NCBI GenBank assembly: GCA_031430415.1
Contig: JANPBN010000097.1
Coordinates: forward strand, 1 to 33,923
Reading direction: 5' to 3'
Length of the DNA stretch: 33,923 bases
Source of the DNA: Dehalococcoidia bacterium
GTDB lineage: Bacteria > Chloroflexota > Dehalococcoidia > DSTF01 > JACRBR01
Notes under the pieces: model-generated
Database searches by the model: none
The model's input: the letters and a program-made list of their open reading frames with translations, nothing else
What the model was told of the DNA's origin: nothing
Part shown: in pieces, positions 17,013 to 32,046 of the stretch
Layout of the letters: each line of letters starts with the position of its first letter
How positions within the stretch are numbered: the first letter of the stretch is position 1
Position numbers and translations under genes: made by a program

Positions 17013-17793
17013 GGGAACCCTCCCGTTTTGCCCGGTTCAAGGACCAGGTGAACGAATAGATCGCAGGCGGCAACAGGATCGCCGCCATGATGGTGAGGAT
17101 GACCACCTGCGGCGCCACGTCGATGAGGCTGGCGCCATCGAAGGCGGACCGGATGCCGGTCAGCGCGTGTGTCAGCGGGACAAGTTGGGTCAGCGGCTCG
17201 ACCCAGTCAGGGAGCGCCTGCACCGGGTAGATGGCGCCGCCAAGCACAGCTGTGACGGCGGAGTACGCGATCAGCACCGGATCGCCCTGCTTCACGAGAA
17301 GCATGAACGCCGCGGACATCGCACCCATCGCGAGAAAGGTGAGCATGGCGGGGATGAAGACCGCGATGACGGCGACCGGGTCGGCGCTGTGCCAGAAACC
17401 AAGAACGGCGACACCGAATACGACGAAGAGCGACATCCGGAACATGGAGAACAGGAAGCGGAATCCCCACAGCGATGCGAGGAGTTGGGTGTCGCTGATT
17501 GGTGCGAGCAGCATCGGCTCGAGTGTTCCCGCGCGCTGGTTGTCGTTGATCGCCCGCGGTATCGCCGCGAGACCCTGCATGAAGACATCCATGAACGCGA
17601 GCCCAAGGAAGATGAACGCGACGTAGCTGCCGTTCTCCTCTTCGATCAAGTCGGAGCGGCCGTTGATGGCGGTTCCCGTGAAGTAGATGAGGCCGATCAT
17701 GGTGAAGACGCCCGCGACCTGCCACACAGCGGCCAGCCGGTAGCTACCCCAGATCAAGAAGTCGCGGCGGAGGTACGCCATCGCCACGCTCAT
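16999..17793 (-). CDS. ABC-2 type exporter permease (Wzm/TagG-like)
   Basis: About 264 aa with six hydrophobic helices and the ABC-2 signature region QRAGTLEPMLLAPIS. ATG (MSVAMAYLRRDF) forms an ATGA overlap with the ATPase gene stop. The track extension to 17889 is Arg-rich. Confidence 0.8.
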   Translation of the reverse strand: MSVAMAYLRRDFLIWGSYRLAAVWQVAGVFTMIGLIYFTGTAINGRSDLIEEENGSYVAFIFLGLAFMDVFMQGLAAIPRAINDNQRAGTLEPMLLAPISDTQLLASLWGFRFLFSMFRMSLFVVFGVAVLGFWHSADPVAVIAVFIPAMLTFLAMGAMSAAFMLLVKQGDPVLIAYSAVTAVLGGAIYPVQALPDWVEPLTQLVPLTHALTGIRSAFDGASLIDVAPQVVILTIMAAILLPPAIYSFTWSLNRAKREGSLGEY

Positions 17794-18821
17794 GCCGGCA
17801 CCCGCTCTCGCGCTTCGACGCCGCGGCTGCGGGCGACGATCATGGTGAACATCTCCTCGAGAGTGAGTTCGCGTTTTCCGCACGACCACACATCGCCGCC
17901 GCTCTCGACGATGGACCGAACGATTGCGGGTACGGCTGCGGTGTCGCGCTTCAGGGCAAGTTCGAGGCGGTACTGATCGCCGCTGATGAGTACGGCCTTC
18001 AGCGAATCAACGCCCGGCACGGCGCGTAGTGACTCGATGGCCGCGTAGGTCAGCCCGCCGATGACGATCTGGTACAACTCGTCGGCCTGAAGCAGGTCAC
18101 GAAGTTCACCGATTTCGCCGATCATCTGGATCTCGCCAGAATCGATGAATGCAATCCGGTCGCAGAGCATTTCGGCTTCGGCCATGATGTTCGTCGCTAG
18201 GATCACGGTGCGTCGCTCATTGACGACGCGCTCGCGCACGAGTTGCCGGAGATCGAGTGCCGCCATCGGATCGAGTGCCCGCGTCGGTTCGTCCATGATC
18301 AGAATGTCAGGATCGTTGAGAAGCCCACGGGCGATGGATGCGCGCTGCTTCATCCCGGACGAGTAGTGGTGCATGCGGAGGTTCGCGGCGTGGGAGAGGC
18401 CCACGAGTTCGAGCAGTTCAAGCGCACGGCGCCGCGCGTCGCGGGCGGGAATACCGTAGAGCGCGGCGTAGAACAGCAGATTGTCGAGCGCCGAAAGGCG
18501 CCAGTAGAACGTGCGCTCGTCGCCGTACACGACGCCGATGCGCCTCCGAACCGCGAGGCTGTCCTTCACGACATCGAGCCCCGTGACGGTCGCCGTGCCG
18601 GAGGTCGGGATGCTGAGCGTCGAAAGGATCTTGACGAGCGTCGTCTTACCCGCGCCGTTCGGGCCGAGCAGTCCGAAGATCTCTCCATGCGGCACCGTCA
18701 GGCTGACGCTGTTCAATGCGACCTTGCCGGGCTCATGCTTGAAGATCGACTTCCATCCCTGCTGGGCCGGGAACTGCATCACAAGGTCGCGTGTCTGGAT
18801 CGCCGGCAGTGCGTGACTCAT
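17790..18821 (-). CDS. ABC transporter ATP-binding protein (DrrA/CcmA-like NBD with a ~100-aa C-terminal extension)
   Basis: Walker A GLLGPNGAGKTT, signature YSSGMKQR, Walker B ILIMDEPTRALD, H-loop region ILATNIM. Start MSHALPAIQTRDL is preceded by GGAGGA and forms an ATGA overlap with the upstream stop. The track ORF to 19271 is an Arg-rich extension. The C-terminal ~100 aa after the NBD are non-ABC. Confidence 0.9.
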   Translation of the reverse strand: MSHALPAIQTRDLVMQFPAQQGWKSIFKHEPGKVALNSVSLTVPHGEIFGLLGPNGAGKTTLVKILSTLSIPTSGTATVTGLDVVKDSLAVRRRIGVVYGDERTFYWRLSALDNLLFYAALYGIPARDARRRALELLELVGLSHAANLRMHHYSSGMKQRASIARGLLNDPDILIMDEPTRALDPMAALDLRQLVRERVVNERRTVILATNIMAEAEMLCDRIAFIDSGEIQMIGEIGELRDLLQADELYQIVIGGLTYAAIESLRAVPGVDSLKAVLISGDQYRLELALKRDTAAVPAIVRSIVESGGDVWSCGKRELTLEEMFTMIVARSRGVEARERVPA

Positions 18822-20635
18822 AGCGCGATCCTCCGCGCCTTGATGGAACCCACAACGAAACCGGCGAGCCACAGTCCCTGGCGTGCGCCGATCCCGGCAA
18901 CCGTTTTGGCTGAGTGAGGCCAGTTGCGTACCGGCCAGACATCGATGCGCGAGCTGACGGTGCCTACCCATGGCGCCGCGACGAGCAGCCATCGCCGCTG
19001 CCGGCGAGCCGCCGCCAGCGCGATGCCGGCCGCGGCAAGATCGAAGTACATCGTCTGGCGCGAGACGAAGATGCCGCTCACGAGCGTGCGATTTGCGTAC
19101 TCCGGTGCACGGGCAAGCAGCATCGGTACCTGCGCTGCGATGCGCATCTCCCGGCGCGGCCACCCTGCATTGGCCGCGTCGCGTGGGAACACGCGAAACT
19201 GGTAGACCTCTTCGCGGAACCGGGAGTTCCAGCCAAGCCGCCTCAAGCGCCACGCTAGCTCGGTATCCCATCCAAGCCTCGGTCCGCTCTGCGAATCGAA
19301 GGAGTCGGCGAAGCCACCCGCGGCAAGGGCGACGGCGTTGCGGTAAAAGGTGTTCGTGATCGGGAACATGTGCTCCGATGGCGGCGACTTCTCGTCCGGA
19401 TCGGGGCGCGTTCCGGCTACCTCGAGGTAGCGCTCCATGCTGCCATCGGCTGCGAAGATCGGCCCGGTGATGACCGCGGTGTCGCCGTCGAACCAGGTGA
19501 TCGCCGACTCGATCCAGTCCGGCGGCACGTGACAGGTGTCTTCGATGTGCGCTGAGATATCGCTGCGGAGCCCGGCCAGGACTTCGTTGCGAGAGGTTGG
19601 GCCGTCCACGCCAATGACCGTGCGGCGCACGTCACAGGCCGACGACCGCGCCATCGCGGCCACGATGTCCGGCGTATCGCGGTGGCGTCCGTCGTCGAGC
19701 ACGACGATCTCACGAAGCCCAGCGGGATACGTCTGGTCTTGCACGGCATCGAGCGTGGCGCGCAGGGCGGCGCCGCCGCTCCGCACGGACACGACGACGC
19801 TCACCGTTGGGTCGTCGATGCGCGTCTTGAGGCCTGCGCCATCGCCTGGGCGGCGCGCGCACTCGAGGATCAGAACATCGCGCAGGGTGGGGAGCGCCCA
19901 ACGAATCAGGCGGCCGGCTTTCCGCAGGGCGTATTCCGGCACGCTGAGGAGTTCCATCTCCATGAACGACTGCTCTGCCGTGACGGCGTCGCACCGCTGT
20001 ACGTGGAGGCCCGCTCCGCGCGCAATGTCGCGTAGTTCATCGCGATGGTAGAGTCGCGCCGTGTCGGTCGAAGGCCAGCCGAGCGAGAGCGCTGCAGTTT
20101 CGCCCTTCGGCGTGAAGGGCTTCCCGCGCATCGCCGAAAGCCGAAGGTCGAGTTTCGCCTGGTTTCGCGTCGCGACCAGGAGTTTGCCATGTGCTGCAAG
20201 CATGCGGCGGAGCGCGCGGAGTAGGCGCTGCGCATTCGGCTCGTCGAGTGCTTCGAGCACCAACGGAAGCACGATGAGGTCGTACGGCCCATCGGTCGCC
20301 TCGATGTCCGGCAGCGCGCTTGTAGTGACGTGGCGCGTCACGAAGCTCTTGGCCCCCTCAGTGAGGTAGGTGCCGGGAAGCTGCCACACACGAAGGTCCT
20401 TCGCGAATCGCGCCACGGACTCAACGAGCAGCGCGCTGCCGCCGATGATGAGCGTCCGGCCCGATGCGTGATGCTTCGACCGGCTGACAAGGTCGGCGAC
20501 GAGCGGCGCACCAAGCGTGAGATGGTGGTACGCGCGTTCGGCGATCTCGAGGTCATCGAGCACGTTCGCGACGAACGCGCGGGCCTCTTCTGGTGGCGGT
20601 GCGACAGCAGGAGCGGTGAGTGTCGTCGTCGTCAC
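18818..20635 (-). CDS. Fusion protein: N-terminal Rossmann/methyltransferase-like domain, GT2 glycosyltransferase domain, C-terminal membrane segments
   Basis: 605 aa; GTG start in a GTGA overlap. N-terminal ~270 aa: RTLIIGGSALLVESVA...YDLIVLPLVLEAL...GKLLVATRN, a class-I MTase-like layout with an atypical motif I. Middle: VSVVVSVRSGGAALRATLDAVQDQTYP, VVLDDG, DTELAWRLRRLGW (GT2). Hydrophobic C-terminus as in the two GT2 paralogues. Confidence 0.75.
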   Translation of the reverse strand: MTTTTLTAPAVAPPPEEARAFVANVLDDLEIAERAYHHLTLGAPLVADLVSRSKHHASGRTLIIGGSALLVESVARFAKDLRVWQLPGTYLTEGAKSFVTRHVTTSALPDIEATDGPYDLIVLPLVLEALDEPNAQRLLRALRRMLAAHGKLLVATRNQAKLDLRLSAMRGKPFTPKGETAALSLGWPSTDTARLYHRDELRDIARGAGLHVQRCDAVTAEQSFMEMELLSVPEYALRKAGRLIRWALPTLRDVLILECARRPGDGAGLKTRIDDPTVSVVVSVRSGGAALRATLDAVQDQTYPAGLREIVVLDDGRHRDTPDIVAAMARSSACDVRRTVIGVDGPTSRNEVLAGLRSDISAHIEDTCHVPPDWIESAITWFDGDTAVITGPIFAADGSMERYLEVAGTRPDPDEKSPPSEHMFPITNTFYRNAVALAAGGFADSFDSQSGPRLGWDTELAWRLRRLGWNSRFREEVYQFRVFPRDAANAGWPRREMRIAAQVPMLLARAPEYANRTLVSGIFVSRQTMYFDLAAAGIALAAARRQRRWLLVAAPWVGTVSSRIDVWPVRNWPHSAKTVAGIGARQGLWLAGFVVGSIKARRIAL

Positions 20636-21825
20636 GCGACCCCCGCCATGCGGCTATCGCGGGTGCGGCTCGATGCCATCGCCTCGAGCATGCCCTCGAG
20701 CTTGGCGCCAACGCGCGTGAGCGACCACGGCTCGGCCCACTCACGGCACGCCGCCGCGGTGCCCGGCTGGCGAGCGAGGTCGATGCCTGCGAGAACCGCG
20801 TCGGCGAGATCGTGGGCCGTGCGGTCACTCAGTAAATCGAAGTAGGTCTTGATCGGAACGGTCACGCCGACGCGTGGATCGGTGATGATCTCGCCGGGGC
20901 CGCTGTAGGCGCTACAGACGACGGGCGTCCCGGCAGCGAGCGACTCCGTCACCACCATGCCAAAGGCCTCCTCGACGGAGGGCAGTACGGTCACAGCGGC
21001 CTGAGCGTATGTGTGCGGCAAGCCTTCCAGCGTGCCGGGGCCGCGGATCTCGATGGCGTCGCGCGCCGAAGCGCTGCGCACGAGGTCGAGGCGCTCGAGC
21101 GTGTACACGTCGGAGCCGAAGTCGAATCCGACGAGACCGAACGGGCCGGCAAGCACGAGACGCGCCTCCGGGCAGCGGCGGTGTATTTCATCCCACGCGC
21201 GGAGCAACAGCGGGCCGCCCTTGCGGGGGTCGCCGAGGTCGCCGGTAAACAGCACCTGCGGGCGCGACAGATCCCGGCCGCCGAGTGGCTTGAATCGGTC
21301 CATATCAACGGGCGGTGGCAGTACCTCGACCGGAACGCCGTACTGCGCGGTGGCCTCGGCGGCGCCGTTCGGTGTCAGCGCGGCGACCTGGTTGGCGCGG
21401 CGCATCAACTGGTTGAACATCCACCGATCGAGCCGCCCGGGCCAGTAGTGATTCTTGACGATGAGGTGATAGAGGTACGGCAGGCCGATCCCCGCCTTGA
21501 GCAGAGGCGCCGCAACTACCGAGGAATAGCTCCACATGTGCGCGACGTCGTACTTGCCACGGATCAGGTGTTCCGTCGCACCGAGCCCGAACCCGTAGAG
21601 CCGCGCCAGCGGCCCGTACCGGTAGGTCAGCGGGTGCGAGAACTGGCGCAGATAGATTACGCGCACGGCGCCGTCATACGTCACGCGGGGCGCGCCGGGT
21701 TTGGACGTGATGATGTCCACCTCATGCCCCTGCGCCGCGAGGTAGCCGGACAGGTCGTGAATGCACCGCTCAGCGCCGCGGCGGATGTACGGCCAATACG
21801 TGGGATACGGGAAGACCACCTTCAT
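20632..21825 (-). CDS. Glycosyltransferase family 4
   Basis: 397 aa. N-terminus MKVVFPYPTYWPYIRRGAERCIHDL. Donor motif LPSVEEAFGMVVTESLAAGTPVVCSAYSGPGEII. Confidence 0.9.
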   Translation of the reverse strand: MKVVFPYPTYWPYIRRGAERCIHDLSGYLAAQGHEVDIITSKPGAPRVTYDGAVRVIYLRQFSHPLTYRYGPLARLYGFGLGATEHLIRGKYDVAHMWSYSSVVAAPLLKAGIGLPYLYHLIVKNHYWPGRLDRWMFNQLMRRANQVAALTPNGAAEATAQYGVPVEVLPPPVDMDRFKPLGGRDLSRPQVLFTGDLGDPRKGGPLLLRAWDEIHRRCPEARLVLAGPFGLVGFDFGSDVYTLERLDLVRSASARDAIEIRGPGTLEGLPHTYAQAAVTVLPSVEEAFGMVVTESLAAGTPVVCSAYSGPGEIITDPRVGVTVPIKTYFDLLSDRTAHDLADAVLAGIDLARQPGTAAACREWAEPWSLTRVGAKLEGMLEAMASSRTRDSRMAGVA

Positions 21826-21864
21826 GTGGTTGTTGTGCCTCGGCTTCGTTGCAATCCGCGCGTA

Positions 21865-22914
21865 CTACTTGAACGCGTGGAAGACGACTTTCGGAATCGG
21901 ATCCTGGAAGTTTGCGTGCAGGGTGAAGCGGGACTTCTCTTCCATGCGCGAGAACCGCGCGAGCTGAGCCCACACGCGATAGCACGTCGTGTTCGGGCGC
22001 CACCACACGTCACTCCGGCCCGAACCCGCGCGGGCGAATTGCGCCAGCGAGTTGCCGACGAACGCCTCGAGATCAGGGTGGTAGACATCGGCGAAGATCG
22101 CGAAGCCACCCGGCTTGACGACCTGCCAGACGGACTCCATCGCGCGGAGCGGCTCGCGAAGGTGAATGAGCAGGTCGCTGACGAAGACCATGTCGAACTG
22201 GCCGAGCTTCTCCGGATTCGCGTCGTAGACGCTGCAGATCACACGGTTGACCTTGGAGTTCTTGATCTCCTTGGCGATGCGGAATCCGACACCCATCTCG
22301 TGATCGACGCCCGACTTGTCGAACTCGTCCATCCAGTTCCGCGGAATGTCGATGTCGCGCATCGATGCGACGTCGATCGAGGTCACATCAGCGCCACGCC
22401 GCTCGAACTCGAACGCCCAGTAGCCGTCGAAGGTCGCGACATCGAGCACGCGCATGCCGGTCATGTCTTCGGGCAGATGGTAGAACGGCAGTTGGTCGCG
22501 GTGGTCGACGTAGCCCGGCGTCGAGACGCCATGGCCCAGGTCGATCGTGTGATACCACTGGTAGCCCGAGATCTTCTCGATGATCGCGCGCGCTTCGGGC
22601 GATGCCGGCTCGGTCAGCGGAGCGATCGGCTTGTTGGTGGGGCGGCCGGCCCGATAGATCGTCGGGTCGTCGTCGGTGTTGGGCGTGTGCCCATTGCCGT
22701 TCGTGTGCCCGTTGCCGTTCCCGTTGTGCCCACCCTTGCGCAGGCCGCTGATGCGGTCGAGCGCCGGGCGCACGACGTACTTGTACGGCACGCTGTTGCG
22801 CACTCGCTCAGCTTGCGTCGCGTCGAGCGCGATGCCGAGCTCCACGGAGCCGATGCGGATGCGGCGTTCGCGCTTCAGTGGCTCGGTCGGCCAGTTGCTT
22901 GTCTGCTGTGGCAT
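21865..22914 (-). CDS. Class I SAM-dependent methyltransferase, paralogue 1 (CmoB/DUF1698-like layout)
   Basis: Start at MPQQTSNW is preceded by GGAGGAGG; the track start 22977 has no RBS. Shared blocks with the other two paralogues: WYHTIDLGHGVSTPGYVDHR, VLDVATFDGYWAFEFERRGA, FDMVFVSDLLIHLREP. It carries a Gly/Asn/His-rich insert (GGHNGNGNGHTNGNGHT). Confidence 0.85.
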   Translation of the reverse strand: MPQQTSNWPTEPLKRERRIRIGSVELGIALDATQAERVRNSVPYKYVVRPALDRISGLRKGGHNGNGNGHTNGNGHTPNTDDDPTIYRAGRPTNKPIAPLTEPASPEARAIIEKISGYQWYHTIDLGHGVSTPGYVDHRDQLPFYHLPEDMTGMRVLDVATFDGYWAFEFERRGADVTSIDVASMRDIDIPRNWMDEFDKSGVDHEMGVGFRIAKEIKNSKVNRVICSVYDANPEKLGQFDMVFVSDLLIHLREPLRAMESVWQVVKPGGFAIFADVYHPDLEAFVGNSLAQFARAGSGRSDVWWRPNTTCYRVWAQLARFSRMEEKSRFTLHANFQDPIPKVVFHAFK

Positions 22915-22948
22915 GGTTCCTCCTCCGGTTTGGTGCGGCCGCACATCG

Positions 22949-23992
22949 TTATTCTGCGTGCGCGCCTGGGGGGACATGCCCCTTCAGAACTACCTTGTGG
23001 AACTTCCCGGCGCGGTTGGTCGCTTCGAACCGCGACACCTCTTCGATCGGGTCGAAGCCGGCGATCTCCATCATCCGTCGCATCGACTTGATGCTGTGGC
23101 GCCACCAGATGCCCATAACGCCGGTGCCCGTGAACTCGCTGACCGGGCGGTCCATCTCTTCGAGCTGTGGGTCGTAGGGCTCGGCGACGATGGCGCAGCC
23201 GCGAGAGACCGAGAACATGTTCTCGATCACCGTCTGCGGATCGCGCAGGCGCAGAAGCAGCTGGCTGATCAGCACGACATCGAACATGCCGAGCCGTTCG
23301 GGTGACACGTCGTAGACATTGACGGCGCGCCGCTCGGCCTTCGAGCCCAGGATCTGCTTCGCAAGCTGGAATCCCTGCCCGGGATATTCGATGCCGATGC
23401 TCGCCTGCTGGTCGTTCCAGATCTTGCGGTGGGAATCTTGCTGCTCGCCCCGTTCGCGCATGGCCTTCAGCTTCGCGAGGCGGGGAATGTCGTGCTCGAG
23501 CGGCGAATCGACATCGATGCCGACGACCTCGGTCGCGCCGCGGCGCTCCATCTCGAAGGACCAGAATCCGTCGTAGGTGCCAATGTCCAACCCTCGCCTG
23601 CCGGTGAGGTCTTCGGGCAGACCGAACAGCGGGACTGTGGCGCGGTTGTCGATGAAGCCCGGCGTGACGACGCCGTGCCCCAGGTCGATGGTGTGATACC
23701 AGCCGATCCCGGCGATGCGTTCGCGCATGTCCCGGGCCACCGGATCGTCATCGAGGGGCAGCGCCTCGGCTGTTGGCGCTTCGTTGACGGAGGTGACGTT
23801 CGGCGGTGCAGCATGCTCGCGCCGCCGGACGATGTCGAGGCCGGGACGCACGACGCGGCGATACAGACCGCTGTGCCGGACTTGCTCGGCCCGCTCAGCG
23901 TCGGCCGAGACTTCGACGCGGAAGCCGGCGATGCTGAAATCACGCTTGGTACGCGAAGCCAATTTTGGTTTCCTCGAGCGTTCGGCGGCCAC
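22949..23992 (-). CDS. Class I SAM-dependent methyltransferase, paralogue 2; first gene of the long downstream operon
   Basis: 347 aa, GTG start (GAGG 9 nt upstream); the alternative is TTG at 23962. Blocks: WYHTIDLGHGVVTPGFIDNR, GLDIGTYDGFWSFEMERRGA, FDVVLISQLLLRLRDP. Confidence 0.85.
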   Translation of the reverse strand: MAAERSRKPKLASRTKRDFSIAGFRVEVSADAERAEQVRHSGLYRRVVRPGLDIVRRREHAAPPNVTSVNEAPTAEALPLDDDPVARDMRERIAGIGWYHTIDLGHGVVTPGFIDNRATVPLFGLPEDLTGRRGLDIGTYDGFWSFEMERRGATEVVGIDVDSPLEHDIPRLAKLKAMRERGEQQDSHRKIWNDQQASIGIEYPGQGFQLAKQILGSKAERRAVNVYDVSPERLGMFDVVLISQLLLRLRDPQTVIENMFSVSRGCAIVAEPYDPQLEEMDRPVSEFTGTGVMGIWWRHSIKSMRRMMEIAGFDPIEEVSRFEATNRAGKFHKVVLKGHVPPGAHAE

Positions 23993-24031: not shown

Positions 24032-24065
24032 ATCTTATGGACAGGCGGTTAACCGATGGTTAACC
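24032..24065 (-). promoter_or_regulatory. SARP-type promoter: heptamer direct repeat plus -10 box upstream of methyltransferase paralogue 2
   Basis: The minus strand reads GTTAACC-ATCG-GTTAACC-GCCTGTCCA-TAAGAT. On the plus strand this is two GGTTAACC palindromes at 24047-24054 and 24058-24065, with ATCTTA at 24032-24037. It lies in the only long (207 nt) intergenic gap of the cluster, about 40-70 nt upstream of the start at 23992. Confidence 0.6.
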
Positions 24066-24199
24066 GGAACGACGGATTTGGCCTGCGCCGATCGCTGCCT
24101 GGCCCGCTATGAAGATGCGTTCAACCGGGGTACCGCGGCGAATCGGAATCGGCGGAGAGGCGGGAACGTCCGGCGCACGGAGTGCCAGTTATTGGCGGG

Positions 24200-25345
24200 T
24201 TAAATTCGGCGAATGCGCCGGCGGAGCGACTGCCAGAACGACGGCCTCATTTTCAGCACATCGTGCATCGGCAGCTCGCTGAGCGCTGCAACCAGCCGGC
24301 CCCCCGTCGCCGCGCCCACGCCGTCATCGAGCTGCTCATCGACATCGAGCATGGAACTGAGGATCACGATCTGACTGAACTGGTTGGCCACGGCGAGCCG
24401 GTAGTCGAGCCAGCAATCGTCATAGGAGTAATCTCGCACGCCGCCCTCCACGAGGAGCTCGTGGTATTGAGGCAGCAGCTCTCGTTCCGCGAGCGCGCGA
24501 TCGTTCGGCTGCAGGCTGCTGACGAACAGGTTCGCGATATCGATAGGCCCGCGGCCCCGCACGGCTGTCTGCCAGTCGATGAATGCTCGCGGCCCCCCCG
24601 CTTCGTCGAAGAGCACGTTGTTGACGCGCAGATCGCCGTGAACGAGCGTCTGCGGCGCCGTCGACAGCCGATCGACGACGGACTGGTCACGGGACAGCGT
24701 CGCACCGAGGCGAAGGATCACCGGCGGCATGTGCCGGCCGAAACGCCCCTCGAACGAACGCCACGCTCCCGGTCCTTCGGCGACGCCCAGCGCGGTGACG
24801 GATGGATCGTTGGGCGTGGGTAGCCAACGTTGGTCGCGAAGCTCGGCGGATTGCCACCAGGCCGCGTGCATTCCAGCTATCTGCTCGACGATGGCGCTCG
24901 CCTCGCTCAGGCTGCAGCCCCGGAGGAGGTCGCCGGCACGGGCACCGGTTACGTCCTCGAGCAGAAGCACGGCGCTCAGACCATCGGCGACGCCAAAGTA
25001 CATGGCGGGAACAGGGACGCCCACGCGCTCGGCCAGGGTGTCGTAGAAGTGCTGCTCGCGCTCGTAGATGCGTAGCCGCGACGCGATCTCGCGTGTGGCG
25101 GGGGCGCTCGACGGGAACTTCGCGATGAGTGTTACCGGGGCCTGATCCTCGGGGATGTCGTAGGTCAGACGCACGCGCACCACGCGCCCGGCCATGCCCT
25201 TGCCGGCGGGCTCCACATGAATGGACGCGACGTTCGCGCGCTGCAGCACAACGCCTCGGAGCGCAGCGGTGAGCCACGCGGCGCTGAGAGACTCCGGGCC
25301 GTCCGGGATGTCGCGGACGGGTGTGTGGCGCGTCGCGATTATCAT
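24200..25345 (-). CDS. APH/choline-kinase-fold phosphotransferase (eukaryotic-like kinase fold)
   Basis: 381 aa. Catalytic loop LVHGDLRVNNVLF (HxDxxxxN) and metal-binding IDWQ. Confidence 0.8.
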   Translation of the reverse strand: MIIATRHTPVRDIPDGPESLSAAWLTAALRGVVLQRANVASIHVEPAGKGMAGRVVRVRLTYDIPEDQAPVTLIAKFPSSAPATREIASRLRIYEREQHFYDTLAERVGVPVPAMYFGVADGLSAVLLLEDVTGARAGDLLRGCSLSEASAIVEQIAGMHAAWWQSAELRDQRWLPTPNDPSVTALGVAEGPGAWRSFEGRFGRHMPPVILRLGATLSRDQSVVDRLSTAPQTLVHGDLRVNNVLFDEAGGPRAFIDWQTAVRGRGPIDIANLFVSSLQPNDRALAERELLPQYHELLVEGGVRDYSYDDCWLDYRLAVANQFSQIVILSSMLDVDEQLDDGVGAATGGRLVAALSELPMHDVLKMRPSFWQSLRRRIRRI

Positions 25346-25351
25346 CAGCCG

Positions 25352-26950
25352 CTAGCCGCCGAGTTTCGCGATGACCTGGTTGAGGAGCACGAGCACCTTT
25401 GCCTGTGCGACACAGTCGGCGAGATAGTCGCCGGAACCACCGCATGAATCGACGTGCGGGCGCAGATCCTTCAGCGTAACGAGTGCGGCTGCGGGCGCGT
25501 TCGCTGCAATCTGGGCTGCCGCCGTCGCGAGCGGCGTGTTGATCTGAGAAGCGCTGGACCCTGGCGCGAATGCGGATCCGGGCAGCGCCGAGACGACGCC
25601 GGAGATCCAACTCGGGTCGGCGACAAGATAGCGGGCGAGTGCGAAGTCATCGCCGGCGGTACCGGGGTTGTAGGCATCGCCGACGAGAACCACGGCGCCA
25701 TCGGGAAACAGAGCCAGTGCGTGGGCGCCATCTGCTCCGCCGAAGAAGTCGGTGGTGACGTGGCCGCCGCTCCCGAAGGTTGCGTCGGGACTCCCATCCT
25801 GGTTGTAACGGAAGAGCGCGAAGTCAAAGCTGGTCGCCGGGTGGACGCTGTGGCCGGCGCCGATGATCTTGCCATCGGGCTGAATCGCGAGCCACAGGAT
25901 CTGGTCGTACTCGCCAGAGACATCGGTGACGCCGATGCCGGGTGCGCCGAACGCGGCAAATCCGGTGTCGAGACTGCCATTTGTGTTCAGCCGCATGATG
26001 GCGGCATCGTTGTCAGCGCCGGCCGGGTTGAACGCGTAGCCCGCCGCGACGATCTTTCCGTCGGCCTGGAGCGTCACGGCCCACGCGATGTCGGTTCCGC
26101 CGAGGAAGTCACGCATCACCAGGCCGCCCCAGCCGAATGACGCGTCGCGGCCACCGTTGGCGTTGTATCGCGCGACGGCCATGTCGTGGTTCGCCGTCTT
26201 GGGGTTGAACGCCATGCCGACGGCGACGATCCTTCCATCGGGCTGAAGAGCGATCTTCATCGCCGCGTCGTTGCTTCCCGCGAAGTCCGTCGTAACGAGC
26301 CCACCCCAACCGAAACTGCCGTCGCGGCTGCCGTTTGCGTTGTAGCGTGCCAGCGCGAACTCTGAGTTGTTTGCGGTCCGATAGGCGAATCCCGCAGCAA
26401 CGATCTTGCCATCGACCTGAACGGCGACACCGAGCACAGTGTCCGCGCCGCCGAAGAAGTCGGTCATGACGATGCCGCCCCAGCCAAACGTGCCGTCACG
26501 GCTGCCGTTCGCGTTGAGGCGCGCAATCCCGAAGTCCGCGTTTCCTGCCGCGCGATCAGCGCGCCCGGCAATCACGATCTTGCCATCCGGTTGAAGCGCG
26601 ACGGACAGGCCTTCGTCGTACCCGCCAACGAAGTCCACGAGGACGATGCCGCCCTGCCCAAACGACGGATCGAGCGTTCCGTTCGGCCGGTACCGAAGCA
26701 CGGTGGCATCGAACGATCCCGTCGACGGATTGCGGGCCTTACCGGCGATCACCATGTTTCCATCGGGTTGCACCGCCATGGAGAACGGCTCGTCCTCGTA
26801 CCCGCCGGCGCCGGAAACATCGAGGAGCGCTCGGCCGTTGGCGCCGAACGTTGGATCGAGCAGCACCGGTACGGTGGCCGCATCGGCGACGAGGAGGATC
26901 GAAAACAGCGCCGCAGAAGTTGCTGCGAGGAGAAGCAGCGCGCGTTTCAT
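25352..26950 (-). CDS. Secreted delta-60-repeat protein (7 repeats, predicted beta-propeller) with a Cys-containing helical C-terminal module
   Basis: Signal peptide MKRALLLLAATSAALFSILLVADA. Seven ~58-61-aa repeats follow, of the form [LR]D.[ST]FG.GG.V..DF.GG.D.A.AVALQ.DGKIV.AG.A.......DFA.ARYN.NGS. The ATG forms an ATGA overlap with the upstream methyltransferase stop. Confidence 0.85.
   Translation of the reverse strand: MKRALLLLAATSAALFSILLVADAATVPVLLDPTFGANGRALLDVSGAGGYEDEPFSMAVQPDGNMVIAGKARNPSTGSFDATVLRYRPNGTLDPSFGQGGIVLVDFVGGYDEGLSVALQPDGKIVIAGRADRAAGNADFGIARLNANGSRDGTFGWGGIVMTDFFGGADTVLGVAVQVDGKIVAAGFAYRTANNSEFALARYNANGSRDGSFGWGGLVTTDFAGSNDAAMKIALQPDGRIVAVGMAFNPKTANHDMAVARYNANGGRDASFGWGGLVMRDFLGGTDIAWAVTLQADGKIVAAGYAFNPAGADNDAAIMRLNTNGSLDTGFAAFGAPGIGVTDVSGEYDQILWLAIQPDGKIIGAGHSVHPATSFDFALFRYNQDGSPDATFGSGGHVTTDFFGGADGAHALALFPDGAVVLVGDAYNPGTAGDDFALARYLVADPSWISGVVSALPGSAFAPGSSASQINTPLATAAAQIAANAPAAALVTLKDLRPHVDSCGGSGDYLADCVAQAKVLVLLNQVIAKLGG
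25622..26860 (-). repeat. Seven in-frame ~175-185-bp divergent tandem repeats encoding the delta-60 blades
   Basis: Read from the translation. Repeats start at LDPTFGANG, LDPSFGQGG, RDGTFGWGG, RDGSFGWGG, RDASFGWGG, LDTGFAAFG and PDATFGSGG. Confidence 0.8.
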
Positions 26951-27927
26951 CGGGCGGAGACTTCCGTCGTGCGCGCGTGTGCCGGTGCGGCCGTATCGTC
27001 ACTCGAACGTCGCGCCCGGAAGATCACCTTTTCGACCGGAAACGGGTGGTGGTAGACCAGCGGCAAGCGCGCGACCTCGTCGACAGTATCGAAGCCGGCG
27101 ACCTGGAGCATTGTGCGCAGCGTCATCGTCGACGGCACGGACCAGATGTACTGGTAGAAGCCGAAGAACTGCGTCATGGCGGTGTTCCCCAGCCCCTCCA
27201 ACTCCGGATTGTACGGTTCGGCGAGGAGCAGGAACCCTCCCGGCTTCAGCATGGGGTAGATGCGTTCCAGCGCACGCTGCGGGTCGCGCAGGTGCAGCAT
27301 CAGATCGCTGACGAACACCATGTCGAAGGTGCCGAGGTCATGCGGCGAGAGATCGTACACGCTCACAGTTCGCCGCTCGACGCGCGAGCCGAGCAGTTCG
27401 TGGGCGAGGCGAAATCCGGCGCCTGTCGGCGTATCTTCGTCCGGGGCCATGCGTTCGAGCGTTCGGAGCGGAATGTCGGCGTGAAACCATGACGGGATGT
27501 CCGTGGCGACGACGACGGCGCCCCGGCGCTCCATCTCGAACGCCCAAAACCCGTCGAAGGTAGCGACTTCGAGCACGCGCATACCGTGCATGTCGGCGGG
27601 CAGGCAATAGCGATCCCTGATGGCGCGGTGGTCAACATATCCGGGCGTCACAACGCCGTGGGGCAGTTCAATGACGTGGTACCAGTCGACACCCTGAACG
27701 CGCTCGGCGATCGCGCGCGCTGGCGGAGACACGTACGCGGACGGATCGAGCGTGGCGCGCGTCCCGGGCAGATCCAGTGGCGCCGAAGACTGGGCGGCAC
27801 GGCCGAACAGCCGCAGGACGGGCGCGGCAAGGCGACGGATGCGGCGCGCCTGCCGCTCTTCGACGCCAAGCGCAATCTCGAAGCCCGCGATGCGGAGGCG
27901 TCGGCGCCGGACCATCGTGTCAGCCAT
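26947..27927 (-). CDS. Class I SAM-dependent methyltransferase, paralogue 3
   Basis: Start at MADTMVRRRRLRIAGF lies 11 nt after the upstream stop. The track extension to 28026 is Arg-rich and overlaps the upstream gene. Blocks: WYHVIELPHGVVTPGYVDHR, VLEVATFDGFWAFEMERRGA, FDMVFVSDLMLHLRDP. Confidence 0.85.
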   Translation of the reverse strand: MADTMVRRRRLRIAGFEIALGVEERQARRIRRLAAPVLRLFGRAAQSSAPLDLPGTRATLDPSAYVSPPARAIAERVQGVDWYHVIELPHGVVTPGYVDHRAIRDRYCLPADMHGMRVLEVATFDGFWAFEMERRGAVVVATDIPSWFHADIPLRTLERMAPDEDTPTGAGFRLAHELLGSRVERRTVSVYDLSPHDLGTFDMVFVSDLMLHLRDPQRALERIYPMLKPGGFLLLAEPYNPELEGLGNTAMTQFFGFYQYIWSVPSTMTLRTMLQVAGFDTVDEVARLPLVYHHPFPVEKVIFRARRSSDDTAAPAHARTTEVSAR

Positions 27928-27938
27928 TGTCGTCTTTC

Positions 27939-28706
27939 TCAGCTGCCGGCGGCGGCGGCCGCGCCATCGATTTCTGCGGTGGCTCGGCCGGCGGCCGGCG
28001 CGTAGCGTCGCGCGTGCTCCTGCCATGCCGGAGTCAACTCCTGCTGGTCCTTCAGCGTATCCATCGAACGCCAGAAACCACGGTGACGATAGATGTACAG
28101 ATCCTGCCGCTGCGCGAGATGTGGAAGCACATCGCGCTCAAGATTCTCGCCGTGCCAGCGATCGAAGGCCGACGAGTCGAACACGAAGAAGCCGGCGTTG
28201 ATCAATCGATCGGGGAGGATGGGCTTCTCCTCGAAGTGCGTGACGCATCCCTGGTCGTCCGAGTGCACAAGCCCGTACTGCGAGCGAAGCGGCACGGCCG
28301 TCATCGTCGCGTTCCCTCGATGCGTCTCGTGGAACTCGACGAGCGCTGCGAGGTCGATGTCGCCCAGTCCATCGCAATATGTCGCGTGGAACGTGGGCGT
28401 CAGGTAGTCGCGGCAACCAAGGATGCGGCCGCCTGTGCCGGTCGTATCGCCCGTATCGACGCAGCGTACACGCCATCCGAGGGCGTCCTCTCGTCGCGCG
28501 AAATGGTCGATGATTTGGTCTTTCAGGTAGCCGACCGAGAGCACGAAGTCACGGTATCCGGCGGCAGCGTAGATGCGCATGACCTGCTCAACGATCGGCG
28601 CATCGCCGACGTCCATCAGAGCCTTCGGCATGCGCTGCGTGTACGGGTAGGCGCGGGTACCGAGTCCGCCGCACAGGATCACCACGGTCATGTCGCGCTG
28701 CGTCAT
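27939..28706 (-). CDS. rfbF: Glucose-1-phosphate cytidylyltransferase-like sugar nucleotidyltransferase
   Basis: About 255 aa. VVILCGGLGTRAYPYTQRMPKALMDVGDAPIV, VDTGDTTGTGGRI, YCDGLGDIDL, INAGFFVFD and HRGFWRSMDTLKD follow the RfbF pattern. The ATG (MTQRDMTVV) forms an ATGA overlap with the upstream stop; the alternative ATG is at 28691. Confidence 0.75.
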   Translation of the reverse strand: MTQRDMTVVILCGGLGTRAYPYTQRMPKALMDVGDAPIVEQVMRIYAAAGYRDFVLSVGYLKDQIIDHFARREDALGWRVRCVDTGDTTGTGGRILGCRDYLTPTFHATYCDGLGDIDLAALVEFHETHRGNATMTAVPLRSQYGLVHSDDQGCVTHFEEKPILPDRLINAGFFVFDSSAFDRWHGENLERDVLPHLAQRQDLYIYRHRGFWRSMDTLKDQQELTPAWQEHARRYAPAAGRATAEIDGAAAAAGS

Positions 28707-29743
28707 CGGACGCTCCCGTTGGCGCCGGCCTTCGCGAACTCGCGTGGCAGCGATGGCTCGAATCCCAGGAACTCGCGATACCACCGCACGCTCTGCATGA
28801 TGCCCGAATCCAGGGACACTTGCGGCGCCCAGTCGAGGATCCGTGCCGCCTTCTCCGAGGAGAGCCATTGCCGTGCTATCTCGCCGCGGTTCTGGCCCTG
28901 AATGACAGGCTCCAACGGCGCCGGAGCGTGCGCGAGAATCTGGCGAACGATCTCGAGCACAGAGTAACCCCGTCCCCAGCCGAAGTTGAACGCCTGCCCG
29001 CGCACATCGTCGCGACCGACGTTCCGCGCGAGGGTCAAGTATGCATCGACCGCGTCACTCACGTACATGTAGTCTCGCTCAAGCGTTCCATCGCTGCGGA
29101 TCACCGGCGCCTCGCCGTTGAGCATCGAGCGGATGGTGCCGGGGACGACGCGGGACCAGTTCAGGTCGCCGGGGCCGTAGATGTTCGCGCAGCGAACGAT
29201 TGCCATCGGCAGGCTATAGGTGACGGCGTAGCTGCGGGCGATCGTCTCCGCACAGAGCTTGGACGCGTCGTAGGGGTAGACCGCGGACAACGGACTATCC
29301 TCGTGGTACGGAAGAACCGGTTGATCGCCATACACCTTGTCGCTCGAGGCGAAGACGAGGCTCTGAAGGAACGAACTCTGTCGGGCTGCCTCCAGCAGCG
29401 TCCAGGTTCCGCGGATGTTCGACTCGAACGTCGACAGCGGCGAGCGATTCGCGACGCCTACGATGGCCTGGGCAGCGAGATGGAAGCAGTGCTGCACCTC
29501 GTATTCGTTGAAGGCGCGTTCAACGGTGGCGTAGTCGGCGATCGAACCGTGGACGATCTCCACCCGGCCGGTGAGGCCGAGCATGTCCAGCCGCCTGTCG
29601 CCACGTGAGTCGCGGAGAATGCCGACGACGTGCGCGCCCTGCTCGACGAGAGCAGCAGCGAGTTGACTCCCCACAAAGCCACCGATGCCGGTGACAAGCG
29701 CTCGCTGCCCACGCCAGTAGCCGGTGCCGTTGTTCGAGGCCAT
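28703..29743 (-). CDS. Extended-SDR NAD-dependent sugar dehydratase/epimerase (CDP-glucose 4,6-dehydratase-like)
   Basis: YWRGQRALVTGIGGFVGSQLA (GxxGxxG), SSDKVYG and the catalytic YPYDASK (YxxxK). The N-terminal YWRG..LVTG and the position next to the rfbF-like gene suggest RfbG-type. Start at ATG 29743 (AAGGGAG about 7 nt upstream) overlaps the upstream TAA by 1 nt (TAATG). Confidence 0.65.
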   Translation of the reverse strand: MASNNGTGYWRGQRALVTGIGGFVGSQLAAALVEQGAHVVGILRDSRGDRRLDMLGLTGRVEIVHGSIADYATVERAFNEYEVQHCFHLAAQAIVGVANRSPLSTFESNIRGTWTLLEAARQSSFLQSLVFASSDKVYGDQPVLPYHEDSPLSAVYPYDASKLCAETIARSYAVTYSLPMAIVRCANIYGPGDLNWSRVVPGTIRSMLNGEAPVIRSDGTLERDYMYVSDAVDAYLTLARNVGRDDVRGQAFNFGWGRGYSVLEIVRQILAHAPAPLEPVIQGQNRGEIARQWLSSEKAARILDWAPQVSLDSGIMQSVRWYREFLGFEPSLPREFAKAGANGSVR

Positions 29744-30471
29744 TACCATGCTCCCTTGCCGCTGACGATCACGGGAATTGTCCGTGCGAGAATCCAGATG
29801 TCGAGCCAAAGGGACCAGTCCCGCGCGTACCGGATGTCCATTTCCACCATCTCGCCAAACGACAACAAGCTGCGACCGTTCACCTGCCACAGACCTGTGA
29901 TGCCGGGCACGGCCAGCACACGGTGCGCGTGGTAGTCGCTCAGTGGGTTGCCCGCTTCCTCCGGCAGGGCGGGACGCGGCCCGACGAGGCTCATATCGCC
30001 GCGGAGCACGTTGAACAGCTGCGGCAGCTCATCGATGCTGAAGCGGCGGATCCAGCCGCCGACAGAGGTGCGTCGAGGGTCATGCTTGATCTTGAAGAGC
30101 GGTCCGTCAGCTTGGTTTTGGTTCGCCAGGCCACCCTTGGCGACATGGGCGTTCACAGCCATCGAGCGAAACTTGTACATACGGAACGGACGCCCGCTGA
30201 GCCCGACGCGCTCCTGCACGTGGAGTACCGGCCCACTGGAGTCGAGCTTGATCGCTAGCGCCACGACGAGCATTGGCGGGCCGAGCAAGACGAGTCCGGC
30301 CGCAGCGACGACGATGTCAATCAACCGCTTGAGCGCCATCTGGAGGCGCTTGGCCTGCTGGCCCCACGAAGTCGGCGCCGGAATCACCCACATGGCGCTC
30401 ACAGCCACCAGGCGAAGCGATTCTGCGGGCAGCGGTGTCGCGGTCAATGTGGTGCCGAGATGCTGTTCCAT
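29743..30471 (-). CDS. Initiating phosphoglycosyl transferase (bacterial sugar transferase family, small WbaP/WcaJ/PglC-like)
   Basis: 242 aa. LKRLIDIVVAAAGLVLLGPPMLVVALAIKLDS re-entrant helix, then RPFRMYKFRSM, GPLFKIKHDPR, DELPQLFNVLRGDMSLVGPRP, PGITGLWQV. GAAGGA lies 8 nt upstream of the ATG. Confidence 0.9.
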   Translation of the reverse strand: MEQHLGTTLTATPLPAESLRLVAVSAMWVIPAPTSWGQQAKRLQMALKRLIDIVVAAAGLVLLGPPMLVVALAIKLDSSGPVLHVQERVGLSGRPFRMYKFRSMAVNAHVAKGGLANQNQADGPLFKIKHDPRRTSVGGWIRRFSIDELPQLFNVLRGDMSLVGPRPALPEEAGNPLSDYHAHRVLAVPGITGLWQVNGRSLLSFGEMVEMDIRYARDWSLWLDIWILARTIPVIVSGKGAW

Positions 30472-30496: not shown

Positions 30497-30529
30497 AACC
30501 TAGCAACGGGTGGTTAAGCCTCGGTTAAG
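30497..30529 (-). promoter_or_regulatory. SARP-type promoter: heptamer direct repeat plus -10 box upstream of the phosphoglycosyl transferase operon
   Basis: The minus strand reads CTTAACC-GAGG-CTTAACC-ACCCGTTGC-TAGGTT. On the plus strand this is GGTTAAG at 30512-30518 and 30523-30529, with AACCTA at 30497-30502. The repeats overlap the last codons and stop of the 71-aa ORF. Confidence 0.6.
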
Positions 30530-30729
30530 TCGCGCCTTGCGTCATCCGTCTTGATGACGGTTCGAATAAATGAAAGCGCGTGAGCAAACTCGCGAAAGCG
30601 CATTCCGGCGTTTGTCGCGACGTGCCGAATCTCGCCGTGCTCCACCATGCCGGGCTCTTCGACCCACAGGCGGATGACGAACGTCTCATAACGCTTTGTG
30701 CTGGCGGGATGTCCGCGAGTGGTCCGCAA
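30514..30729 (-). CDS. Small (71 aa) protein of unknown function
   Basis: TTG start, preceded by GGGGGTAG. The sequence MRTTRGHPASTKRYETFVIRLWVEEPGMVEHGEIRHVATNAGMRFREFAHALSFIRTVIK.. has the pattern F-V-I-R-L-W..E, then G-x-I-x-H-V, then F..L..FI. I recognise this pattern from uncharacterised small proteins. It has its own SARP-type promoter. Confidence 0.5.
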   Translation of the reverse strand: MRTTRGHPASTKRYETFVIRLWVEEPGMVEHGEIRHVATNAGMRFREFAHALSFIRTVIKTDDARRDLTEA

Positions 30730-30795
30730 TGGCTACCCCCAAGATCGCCCGTACGCGATCTCCATCGCTATCGCGCAGGTGCGCGGCTAACGCGG

Positions 30796-30828
30796 ATGGT
30801 ACGGGGACGTGGTTAACTGGTAGTTAAG
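30796..30828 (-). promoter_or_regulatory. SARP-type promoter: heptamer direct repeat plus -10 box upstream of the 71-aa ORF
   Basis: The minus strand reads CTTAACT-ACCA-GTTAACC-ACGTCCCCG-TACCAT. On the plus strand this is GGTTAAC at 30811-30817, AGTTAAG at 30822-30828 and ATGGTA at 30796-30801. It lies about 30 nt downstream of the SARP gene stop. Confidence 0.55.
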
Positions 30829-30858
30829 GCCGTGCGACGCCCTGGACGAGAGGGGTGA

Positions 30859-31863
30859 TCATGGAAATAGCGACTCAAACGCACGTACCGTGTCTGTGCC
30901 GGGAGAAGCGCCGATCTCTCGTTTGAGCATCGTGCGACAGACGGCGTACCAGGCGCCGGCGCGCGCATGCTGATTCAACGCGCCGTGGCACTGCATCAGC
31001 ATGCGGTAGGCGTCCTCGCGGCAAGGATCCGCATCGATGATCTTGTGGCAATAGCGAATGGCGTCCCGCGCATCGCCGTTCTGCATGGCAAGTTCCGCGA
31101 GATTGCTCACGATCTCCAAGTACACGTCGCGTAGCTGTTCGCGACGGATGATCGTCCAATCGTCGTAGATGTCTTCTTCGAGCAGGTCGCCGGCGTACAG
31201 ACGCTCGGCCTCGCGGTACTCGCGGCGCGCGAGTTCAATCTCTTGGGCAGCTTGAAACGCCGTGCCGCGCCGCCAGTGCCGCTCCAGCGATTCGGTATCG
31301 ATCCAGACCTTGGCATCCCGGTTCAGGCCGTATGTGCCATCCCGGAAGACCACCCAGCGGTCATGCGTGCCCGCCGTCCTTCCGGGTTCCAGAATGCTGC
31401 GCAGGTTGTGCGCTGCGACCTTCAGTGACACGCCGCCGGTGACCGGGTCGGTGTCAGGCCACAGCATCTCCATAAGTGCGTCTCGCGGCAAGATGCGATC
31501 CCTGTGGCTGGCGAGGATCTTCAAGAGCGAACGAGCCTTGCCACCGAGGCGAGCGGTGACATCCTCACCATTCACAGCGACACGGAACGACGCCATCATG
31601 TGGATCGCGAGGCTAGGGGACGGGGCGGCGCCGCGATCTGTTTTGATCGCGTCCGTATCGCTCGCTGCATCGTCGCGCAGCAGGTAGGGCGGCACGTCCG
31701 ACCGGGGGGACGCCATTCTGCGTGTGGTCACGTTGTGCCCCTCGATAACTGGAGCGCCCTCAACGCGGAAACGACGGACTGTAGCGCGGCCGCGAGTGCC
31801 GCACGATGCATGCTCGAAAACAGAAGCCACCCCCAGAGGCACGGCTTCCTTGCCTTGCACCAT
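30859..31863 (-). CDS. SARP-family transcriptional activator (OmpR-type winged helix plus BTAD domain; AfsR/DnrI/RedD family)
   Basis: FRVAVNGEDVTARLGGKARSLLKILASHRDRILPRDALMEMLWPD is a Trans_reg_C-like domain. The TPR-like BTAD follows (AQEIELARREYREAERLYAGDLLEEDIYDDW...REDAYRMLMQCHGALNQHARAGAWYAVCRTMLKREIGASP). The start is uncertain: ATG at 31863 gives an ~88-aa N-terminal extension, while ATGs at 31599/31596 (MMASFRV) give a canonical ~245-aa small SARP. None has a clear SD. Confidence 0.85.
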   Translation of the reverse strand: MVQGKEAVPLGVASVFEHASCGTRGRATVRRFRVEGAPVIEGHNVTTRRMASPRSDVPPYLLRDDAASDTDAIKTDRGAAPSPSLAIHMMASFRVAVNGEDVTARLGGKARSLLKILASHRDRILPRDALMEMLWPDTDPVTGGVSLKVAAHNLRSILEPGRTAGTHDRWVVFRDGTYGLNRDAKVWIDTESLERHWRRGTAFQAAQEIELARREYREAERLYAGDLLEEDIYDDWTIIRREQLRDVYLEIVSNLAELAMQNGDARDAIRYCHKIIDADPCREDAYRMLMQCHGALNQHARAGAWYAVCRTMLKREIGASPGTDTVRAFESLFP

Positions 31864-32018
31864 CTGCCTGACGCATGCTGGTCGCCACCTCTACGGGGAA
31901 GGCGACGCCCTACAACGGCTTTTATGTAGCCGTTAGCGCGTTATGTTCCGAATGTCATGTAGTTTCGGCCGCTCGTCGCCGACCGTACCGCCGCGCGGGG
32001 AGCGACGGCATCGTGGCT

Positions 32019-32046
32019 AGTATACGCGCGTCACCCGTTCTGTCAA
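32019..32046 (-). promoter_or_regulatory. Near-consensus housekeeping-sigma promoter pointing toward the SARP gene
   Basis: The minus strand reads TTGACA (32046-32041), a 16-nt spacer, then TATACT (32024-32019). This would give a leader of about 150 nt before the ATG at 31863. Confidence 0.4.

Follow-up and report, generated by a model that had tools for sequence, protein, structure and literature searches.

Paired TTAACC heptamers as candidate SARP-dependent promoter elements at a surface-glycan locus of an uncultured Chloroflexota bacterium

The window analyzed here is the whole 33,923-nt stretch of 64% G+C DNA in contig JANPBN010000097.1 of a Dehalococcoidia bacterium, and it contains a gene for a small regulator of the SARP (Streptomyces antibiotic regulatory protein) family next to a surface-glycan locus. 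At four places in the window, a pair of TTAACC-type heptamers precedes a -10 element and faces a gene. We consider it likely, with a probability of roughly 0.8, that these four boxes are SARP-dependent promoter elements. By every test applied, at the level of sequence and predicted structure, the system is supported as a member of the SARP class. The sole feature of the class that is missing is an actinobacterial distribution, and actinobacterial origin describes where SARPs occur and is not a mechanistic criterion for a SARP.

The four boxes follow the general pattern NTTAACY-N4-NYTAACC-N9-TAnnnT (Table 1). In each of these predicted sites, two 7-bp direct repeats recur with an 11-bp period, the last C of the proximal heptamer lies exactly 9 nt from the TAnnnT (8 nt if the heptamer register is taken as TTAACCN), and 20 nt separate the distal repeat from the -10. 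None of the four box promoters has a -35 hexamer at 17 nt (0-2 of 6 matches). All four sites lie upstream of a gene and in the same direction as that gene, and their flanks and spacers are mutually dissimilar. An earlier note on this DNA, made by eye from the letters, had placed the sites just upstream of genes in gene orientation, with an 11-bp period and a proximal heptamer 8-9 bp from TAnnnT, and both descriptions hold at all four sites. The sequences it quoted are exact; the third site, however, spans 24064..24032 and does not begin at 24065. Box 1 lies 30 bp past the SARP stop codon and faces a 71-aa open reading frame (ORF), and Box 2 faces a Bac_transf gene with its ATG at 30471. Box 3 faces a methyltransferase-like gene starting at 23992 or 23962, and Box 4 faces the gene of a TSP3-repeat protein with its ATG at 2291.

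Within the window, the pattern STTAACY-N4-SYTAACC was found at four sites against 0.03 expected. Since the heptamers of Box 3 are palindromic GGTTAACC units, this pair can be read on the plus strand too, and a fifth match to the pattern is the reverse reading of the same palindromic pair. When the -10 was included, TTAACY-N5-YTAACC-N9-TAnnnT gave four matches against 0.00 expected, and none in 100 shuffles. The window has nine copies of TTAACC by itself, where 2.5 were expected, and all but one of them fall inside the four sites. As a guard against circularity, we also used an independent 33-column matrix built from 11 sites of other genomes only, with the window sites excluded. This relatives-only matrix scored Box 1 at 28.2 bits, Box 2 at 25.8 bits, Box 4 at 25.4 bits and Box 3 at 24.4 bits, against a maximum of 20.2 bits and a 95th percentile of 11.4 bits in 500 Markov shuffles of the window. 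The next-best match in the window reached 15.8 bits and had no -10. Where the kinase gene ends, some 130 bp ahead of Box 3, a weak box-like pair was considered as a fifth site (at 24204) and dropped for its score and the lack of a -10 (Table 1); it is probably non-functional.

SARP target sites are directly repeated heptamers overlapping the -35 region, with a classical unit of 11 bp and two to three or more repeats (PMC10972967). For AfsR, the downstream DNA-binding domain lies 8 bp upstream of the -10, and the afsS promoter has a 20-bp spacing between -35 and -10 (PMC11301090). Because the boxes have heptamer repeats at 11 bp, a distance of 8-9 nt to TAnnnT and no -35 element, their geometry is SARP geometry (PMC11301090, PMC10972967). 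The SARP-type architecture that the earlier note had read into the sites thus agrees with the published one, and boxes recur after SARP orthologues at dozens of loci.

The adjoining gene, which had been taken for a SARP gene, indeed has the domains and the predicted fold of one. On the SARP ORF, the Pfam BTAD profile scored 78.8 bits (E 6.9e-22, profile positions 1-143 of 146) and Trans_reg_C scored 31.7 bits (cut-off 26.2; E 1.6e-7), so that both scores exceed the curated cut-offs. The sole NCBIfam match was the AfsR model, over its SARP region, and phmmer against solved structures returned AfsR (8hvr) and EmbR (2fez), with alignments spanning both domains. An AlphaFold model built from 31 orthologues had a mean pLDDT (predicted local distance difference test score) of 79, with values above 90 across most of residues 85-334, and displayed the helix/strand pattern of an OmpR/PhoB-type winged helix N-terminal to the BTAD domain. 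The six best Foldseek matches of the model were the SARP domain of AfsR in transcription complexes (8k60, 8hvr) and EmbR (2ff4, 2fez), with E of 2e-10 to 8e-9, about 250 aligned columns and a TM (template modeling) score of 0.80 relative to AfsR. Pfam gave no Response_reg match, and hence no receiver domain, in the protein. Because the BTAD domain, the winged helix and the AfsR/EmbR matches in both sequence and fold point the same way, the protein is, as far as sequence and model can tell, a genuine small SARP without a sensor domain.

The SARP ORF is open up to an ATG at 31863, which would give a protein of 334 aa. Residues 1-77 of the 334-aa form have a pLDDT below 50, are predicted to be disordered and are not conserved, and for these reasons the annotated 285-aa start, or one near it, is more likely to be the true start. 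The promoter scan found a near-consensus housekeeping promoter upstream of the SARP gene, and the matrix scan found no heptamer box there. Autoregulation of the SARP gene through a box was therefore rejected. Between this promoter and the SARP coding region lies a leader (31717..32018, minus strand) of up to 150-400 nt, depending on the start codon. Rfam had no match at gathering thresholds in the leader or elsewhere in the window, and a riboswitch or other known RNA in the leader was rejected on this ground.

The conserved small gene that Box 1 faces was not named in the earlier note. The GenBank annotation of this contig lacks the 71-aa ORF, and an exact-sequence look-up returned no called gene. 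An exhaustive profile-free search found 36 representative relatives at E<1e-3, and a profile search found 85 clusters of relatives, all labeled 'hypothetical'. Because of these relatives, the ORF is, judging by its sequence, a real gene of a conserved, uncharacterized family. The family shares the motif YETFVIRLW..HGEIRHV.S...RF....A..FI, and no Pfam or NCBIfam family matched the 71-aa protein. Two long repeat proteins among the first matches (P0075 and P0093) were discarded as spurious. The AlphaFold model of the 71-aa protein (pLDDT 82) has three strands followed by a helix in a unit of about 45 residues, with no significant match among solved structures (best E 0.55). The TAA stop codon of the small gene falls within the second heptamer of Box 2, and the order of the locus is thus SARP, box, small gene, box, glycan operon.

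The same domain also occurs in longer proteins. In L060, L064, L065 and L066 from Actinomycetota and in L054 from Anaerolineales (L numbers are our labels for loci of relatives), it is embedded in proteins of 290-405 aa with a helix-hairpin-helix-like or coiled-coil N-terminus and a Pro/Ala-rich linker, and these proteins share a C-terminal domain of about 110 aa without known function. At L005 (8535..9497, minus strand), the small-protein domain and a Bac_transf priming transferase lie in one frame of 320 aa, with a box at 9577. This joint frame may be a true fusion, or it may be an open, G+C-rich linker of about 70 codons with an internal MKRGLD start; the case is ambiguous and was not used as evidence.

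About 70 orthologues of the SARP were found at 50-68% identity, and they are common in metagenomes. A scan of one genome per species gave 80 loci, nearly all from metagenome-assembled genomes (MAGs) of Chloroflexota, and the closest genomes are Chloroflexota MAGs labeled Dehalococcoidia or Chloroflexia. The small gene, detected with tblastn and a hidden Markov model, directly follows the SARP gene in about 25 of the 80 loci. It also follows the SARP gene in three further contigs and six metagenome contigs, for a total of about 35 Chloroflexota loci. Essentially all of the intergenic stretches between SARP gene and small gene contain 2-4 heptamers with an 11-bp period, and the last heptamer is 9 nt from TAnnnT wherever a TAnnnT is recognizable. 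The 9-nt spacer is present in every site of the window and of close relatives. A relaxed pattern found 31 sites against 0.25 expected in 1.15 Mb (the window plus the 80 genome loci), each of them either in the stretch from a SARP gene to a small gene or at a promoter within the cluster of a close relative; these 31 sites, as well as those of L082-L084, were found with the 9 nt fixed and are no independent test of the spacing.

A box precedes the small gene in the window and in L002-L005, L082-L084 and L085-L090. In seven close relatives, extra boxes precede orthologues of the window's targets or a gene for a delta-60 propeller protein (Table 1). Because spacers and flanks differ between loci, these boxes are not copies of one DNA segment. 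At L011, the box directly follows the SARP gene and the small gene is absent. At L086 (about 3250-3290) and L087 (about 2060-2100), the small-gene box is preceded, at a distance of about 150-200 bp, by another TTAACC pair without a clear TAnnnT; these additional pairs may be auxiliary sites.

The heptamer varies among the relatives. The window's group and Ktedonobacter (four copies) have TTAACC/T, one Dehalococcoidia group has TTAACC-TTAACC-TTCACC-TTTACC, and the others have mostly TTCACC, CTAATT or TTAATT. The predicted recognition helix (LKVAAHNLR in the SARP here) has a His with TTAACC arrays and an Arg in four TTCACC-dominated loci, and it changes from Lys to Arg with CTAATT or TTAATT and from Lys to Asn with TTAAGC. 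These comparisons suggest that the recognition helix covaries with the heptamer.

The small gene is also found in a second arrangement, in which an FHA-domain gene, the small gene and the SARP gene follow one another (L013, L018 and L091-L099); L013 and L018 have two SARP genes each. More distant members of the SARP clade, at about 36-42% identity, head clusters for extracellular contractile injection systems (eCIS) and not a glycan cluster. At these distant loci, the gene directly after the SARP/small-gene cassette encodes a Pvc15-type WHD (PF22977)-AAA ATPase of about 735 aa, or else genes for Pvc16_N and a phage tail sheath come next. Because the small gene stands beside SARP genes in two gene orders and with two cargoes, the small protein would work with the regulator, most likely as its partner or modulator rather than as a glycan enzyme. 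This is the weakest step of our argument.

We propose that two SARP protomers would occupy a pair of TTAACC heptamers with its 11-bp period as neighbors on the same face of the DNA helix, and that the bound heptamers would replace the -35 element at the four promoters. The SARP would then recruit or stabilize RNA polymerase with the housekeeping sigma factor on the TAnnnT -10, as AfsR does at afsS. Given that a near-consensus promoter, and no box, precedes the SARP gene, how much SARP is present or how active it is would set the switch, and not direct autoregulation. The predicted targets are the adjoining conserved 71-aa protein, which would be the core target across the family, the operon led by a priming glycosylphosphotransferase, the long array of methyltransferase, glycosyltransferase and export genes, and the secreted protein with TSP3 calcium-binding repeats.

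It could be argued that the boxes are real and are read by another protein, either the small protein or an unlinked response regulator of the OmpR/PhoB type, with the SARP a mere neighbor. The small gene is nearly as closely tied to the boxes as the SARP gene is, and the OmpR/PhoB class as a whole typically uses direct repeats at 11-bp intervals. Nevertheless, we regard such a reader as unlikely: L011 keeps the SARP gene and the box where the small gene is absent, and the model of the small protein, with its three strands and a helix in about 45 residues, is unlike any DNA-binding fold. Furthermore, no other winged-helix regulator is encoded in the window, the recognition helix of the SARP varies along with the heptamer, and the 8-9-nt offset from the -10 is a SARP signature (PMC11301090). 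It is very improbable that TTAACC is the -35 of an alternative sigma factor, for example of the ECF (extracytoplasmic function) type, rather than an activator site. A common upstream element at four promoters in which the housekeeping -35 is missing would fit such a factor, but the hexamers lie 9 and 20 nt from the -10 and not 16-18 nt, and they are present in 2-4 copies phased at 11 bp, which a sigma factor would not require. On this spacing and these phased arrays, a plain -35 or an ECF-sigma promoter was rejected. In addition, the -10 is of the housekeeping TAnnnT type, like the TATACT of the SARP gene, and no sigma factor gene is conserved at these loci. The idea that the repeats are a chance product or non-regulatory, such as remnants of short repeat elements, draws on the fact that AT-rich hexamers are conspicuous in DNA of this G+C content and that a finding made by eye is prone to selection bias. 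It is effectively refuted by the statistics (4 against 0.00 expected in the window and 31 against 0.25 in the wider set) and by the conservation, as the positions are kept before orthologous genes though the SARPs share just 50-68% identity; the dissimilar flanks and spacers also speak against it.

Several points weigh against the SARP as the activator that acts through these boxes. Binding and activation by the SARP are inferred throughout, and the organism and its relatives are all uncultured MAGs. The box count of this genome covers 34 kb, and the view of the regulon is hence that of this stretch. No TTAACC-type boxes were found near the FHA, small gene and SARP arrangement (L013, L018, L091-L099). 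The covariation of helix and heptamer comes from few, probably related lineages and is partial, with His-type proteins beside mixed TTAACC/TTCACC arrays. Finally, the model of the 71-aa protein, for which a partner role is only proposed, matches no solved fold.

Table 1. Boxes, genes and operons of the window, and loci of relatives that carry boxes or related arrangements.
Feature	Position or locus	Strand	Details
Box 1	30796..30828	-	CTTAACT 30828-30822, ACCA, GTTAACC 30817-30811, 9-nt spacer, -10 TACCAT 30801-30796
Box 2	30497..30529	-	CTTAACC 30529-30523, GAGG, CTTAACC 30518-30512, 9-nt spacer, -10 TAGGTT 30502-30497
Box 3	24032..24064	-	GTTAACC 24064-24058, ATCG, GTTAACC 24053-24047, 9-nt spacer, -10 TAAGAT 24037-24032
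Box 4	2197..2229	+	CTTAACC 2197-2203, GCGG, GCTAACC 2208-2214, 9-nt spacer, -10 TATCGT 2224-2229
Weak box-like pair	24172..24204	-	TTTAACC-CGCC-AATAACT; 13-16 bits, within the null range; no TAnnnT
71-aa gene, unannotated	30514..30729	-	TTG start at 30729; GGGGG ribosome-binding site 30740-30736
Small SARP activator gene	30859..31716	-	285 aa as annotated in GCA_031422835.1
Promoter of the SARP gene	32019..32046	-	TTGACA-16-TATACT; near-consensus housekeeping, 11 of 12 matches (promoter scan)
First operon	24200..30471	-	Pfam and NCBIfam; led by polyprenyl glycosylphosphotransferase (Bac_transf)
Second co-directional array	3385..23992	-	Pfam and NCBIfam; methyltransferases, GT4 and GT2 glycosyltransferases, ABC-2 transporter pair
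Secreted TSP3 protein	2291..3349	+	Pfam TSP3_bac E 2.1e-34; signal peptide after the ATG; GGAGAG ahead
Boxes before priming transferase (Bac_transf)	L003, L004, L082		
Boxes before methyltransferase-like gene after kinase	L002, L004, L083		
Boxes before delta-60 propeller (DUF5122) gene	L003, L005, L084		
Box before TSP3-like secreted protein gene	L002		
FHA/small/SARP arrangement	L013 398..1781 (-); L018 2246..3599 (-); L091-L099		
eCIS-type loci	L007, L008, L012, L015, L016, L019, L020, L022, L023, L026, L031; L034, L040		L007 to L031: about 200-700 bp past the SARP gene

According to Pfam and NCBIfam, the window holds a glycan locus of about 27 kb on a single strand. The first operon continues after the glycosylphosphotransferase gene with genes for an epimerase/dehydratase, a nucleotidyl transferase, a methyltransferase, a delta-60/DUF5122 propeller protein and an APH-like kinase, and its gene order is repeated in L001, L083 and L084. 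The second array also includes genes for a chain-length-determinant-like protein, a tyrosine autokinase, a Wzy_C protein and a GH99/DUF5010-like protein, and the matrix scan found no further box inside it. The secreted TSP3 protein has partial NCBIfam matches to CglD and MtsD. The regulon that the earlier note had put forward, an exopolysaccharide locus plus secreted calcium-binding proteins, is borne out by Pfam, NCBIfam and the sequence as an exopolysaccharide-type locus and a secreted protein with TSP3 calcium-binding repeats.

Between 10348 and 25345 (minus strand), the hallmarks of two export routes are mixed in the glycan locus. One set comprises the ABC-2 transporter, the APH-like kinase and several methyltransferases and is reminiscent of chain-terminating WbdD-type systems; the other comprises the Wzy_C protein, the chain-length determinant and the tyrosine autokinase. 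Near the start of the window, a second TSP3-repeat ORF (239..874, minus strand) has no box upstream and overlaps a plus-strand ORF (143..766). ARAGORN called a tRNA-Gln (CTG) at 7326..7399 (minus strand), inside the Pfam-matched part of the DUF5010/GH99-like ORF 6863..7972, and this call is most likely a false positive.

Among known systems, AfsR at afsS in Streptomyces coelicolor (8hvr, 8k60) has the same SARP-domain fold and two direct repeats at the -35 position, and the 20-bp spacing of afsS has its parallel in the distal repeat that ends 20 nt from the -10 here. A target gene encodes a regulatory product in both systems, as proposed here for the 71-aa protein. The afsS gene adjoins afsR and encodes a 63-aa protein, and AfsS and the 71-aa protein would be parallel in gene position only. 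AfsR is a protein of nearly 1000 aa with NB-ARC and TPR domains, whereas the protein here is a small SARP of about 250-285 aa with a sequence identity of about 21-22% to AfsR. Instead of the afs box, the system here has the heptamer TTAACC, together with a Chloroflexota host and glycan and secreted-protein targets. EmbR of Mycobacterium tuberculosis (2fez, 2ff4) has the same winged-helix and BTAD core, but it also carries an FHA domain at its C-terminus and is regulated through Ser/Thr phosphorylation, while the SARP here is without an FHA domain. In the second arrangement of the relatives, by comparison, a separate FHA gene stands beside the small and SARP genes. EmbR regulates the emb arabinosyltransferases, that is, genes for cell-envelope polysaccharide.

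PhoB/OmpR regulators place their winged helices in tandem on direct repeats of 7 bp, which are spaced by 4 bp and take the place of the -35. These regulators have an N-terminal receiver domain with a phospho-accepting aspartate, whereas the protein here has a BTAD domain instead, with a SARP-type offset from the -10; in the SARP, the stretch before the winged helix, where a receiver would lie, is predicted to be disordered. The classical SARP heptamer is TCGAGNN-like, and the one here is (N)TTAACY. We know of no conserved small-protein partner described for the classical regulators ActII-ORF4, DnrI and RedD. These three are of the same size class and two-domain layout as the SARP here, their genes lie at the border of the clusters under their control, and 2-3 or more heptamers with an 11-bp period replace the -35 at several of their cluster promoters (PMC10972967). 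Unlike the genes here, their targets are antibiotic-pathway genes in Actinobacteria.

Reviews often state, as one of them puts it, that SARPs are 'exclusively found in actinobacteria' (PMC10972967). Two papers already record SARP-like regulators from other bacteria (PMC8213781, PMC10599522). BTAD is listed as a 'shell' regulatory domain of eCIS loci in the available part of Geller et al. 2021 (PMC8213781), and that part gives neither an operator nor a small-protein partner. The regulators described there belong to injection clusters, whereas the cassette here lies beside a glycan locus, and no injection-system genes (sheath, tube, baseplate or Pvc15-type AAA ATPase) were found in the 34-kb window. 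GSU1771 of Geobacter sulfurreducens is a SARP-type regulator outside Actinobacteria with biofilm and exopolysaccharide phenotypes (PMC10599522). It differs from the SARP here in having a receiver domain, and strains without it form thicker biofilms. GSU1771, which entered this comparison through the literature, is no close relative of the SARP here and has no reported heptamer operator. In the literature, we found no paper that links SARPs with Chloroflexota or describes a TTAACC operator, and no report of this operator or the small partner at eCIS-type loci. Four things are new here: the phylum, the sequence of the heptamer, the class of targets and the conserved, unannotated small-protein neighbor.

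A wider and rather speculative possibility is that the SARP gene and the gene of about 70 aa act as a regulatory cassette of two genes that recurs widely across the Chloroflexota, with the small protein as a new SARP partner, and that this cassette has moved, along with its promoter of phased heptamers, between quite different cargoes. The small partner would then be a co-activator, an anti-activator or a feedback element. The cargoes would be contractile injection systems in most lineages and, in the organism studied here, a surface-glycan and secreted-adhesin regulon.

The proposed mechanism is an expected one, a new instance of a well-known design. Reviews still cast SARPs as antibiotic regulators exclusive to Actinobacteria. 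Here, the full design of a SARP promoter was recovered from sequence alone in an uncultured member of the Chloroflexota, and it is conserved over dozens of loci. The design precedes genes for surface glycans, secreted proteins and, in relatives, contractile injection systems. The analysis also flags an unannotated, conserved small-protein family tied to SARP regulators, and the natural variants of helix and heptamer are usable for the study of SARP DNA specificity. Taken together, the boxes and the SARP gene provide an explicit operator, a predicted set of target genes and a handle that consists of one gene: clusters of this type from organisms that resist cultivation could be turned on by expressing the SARP.

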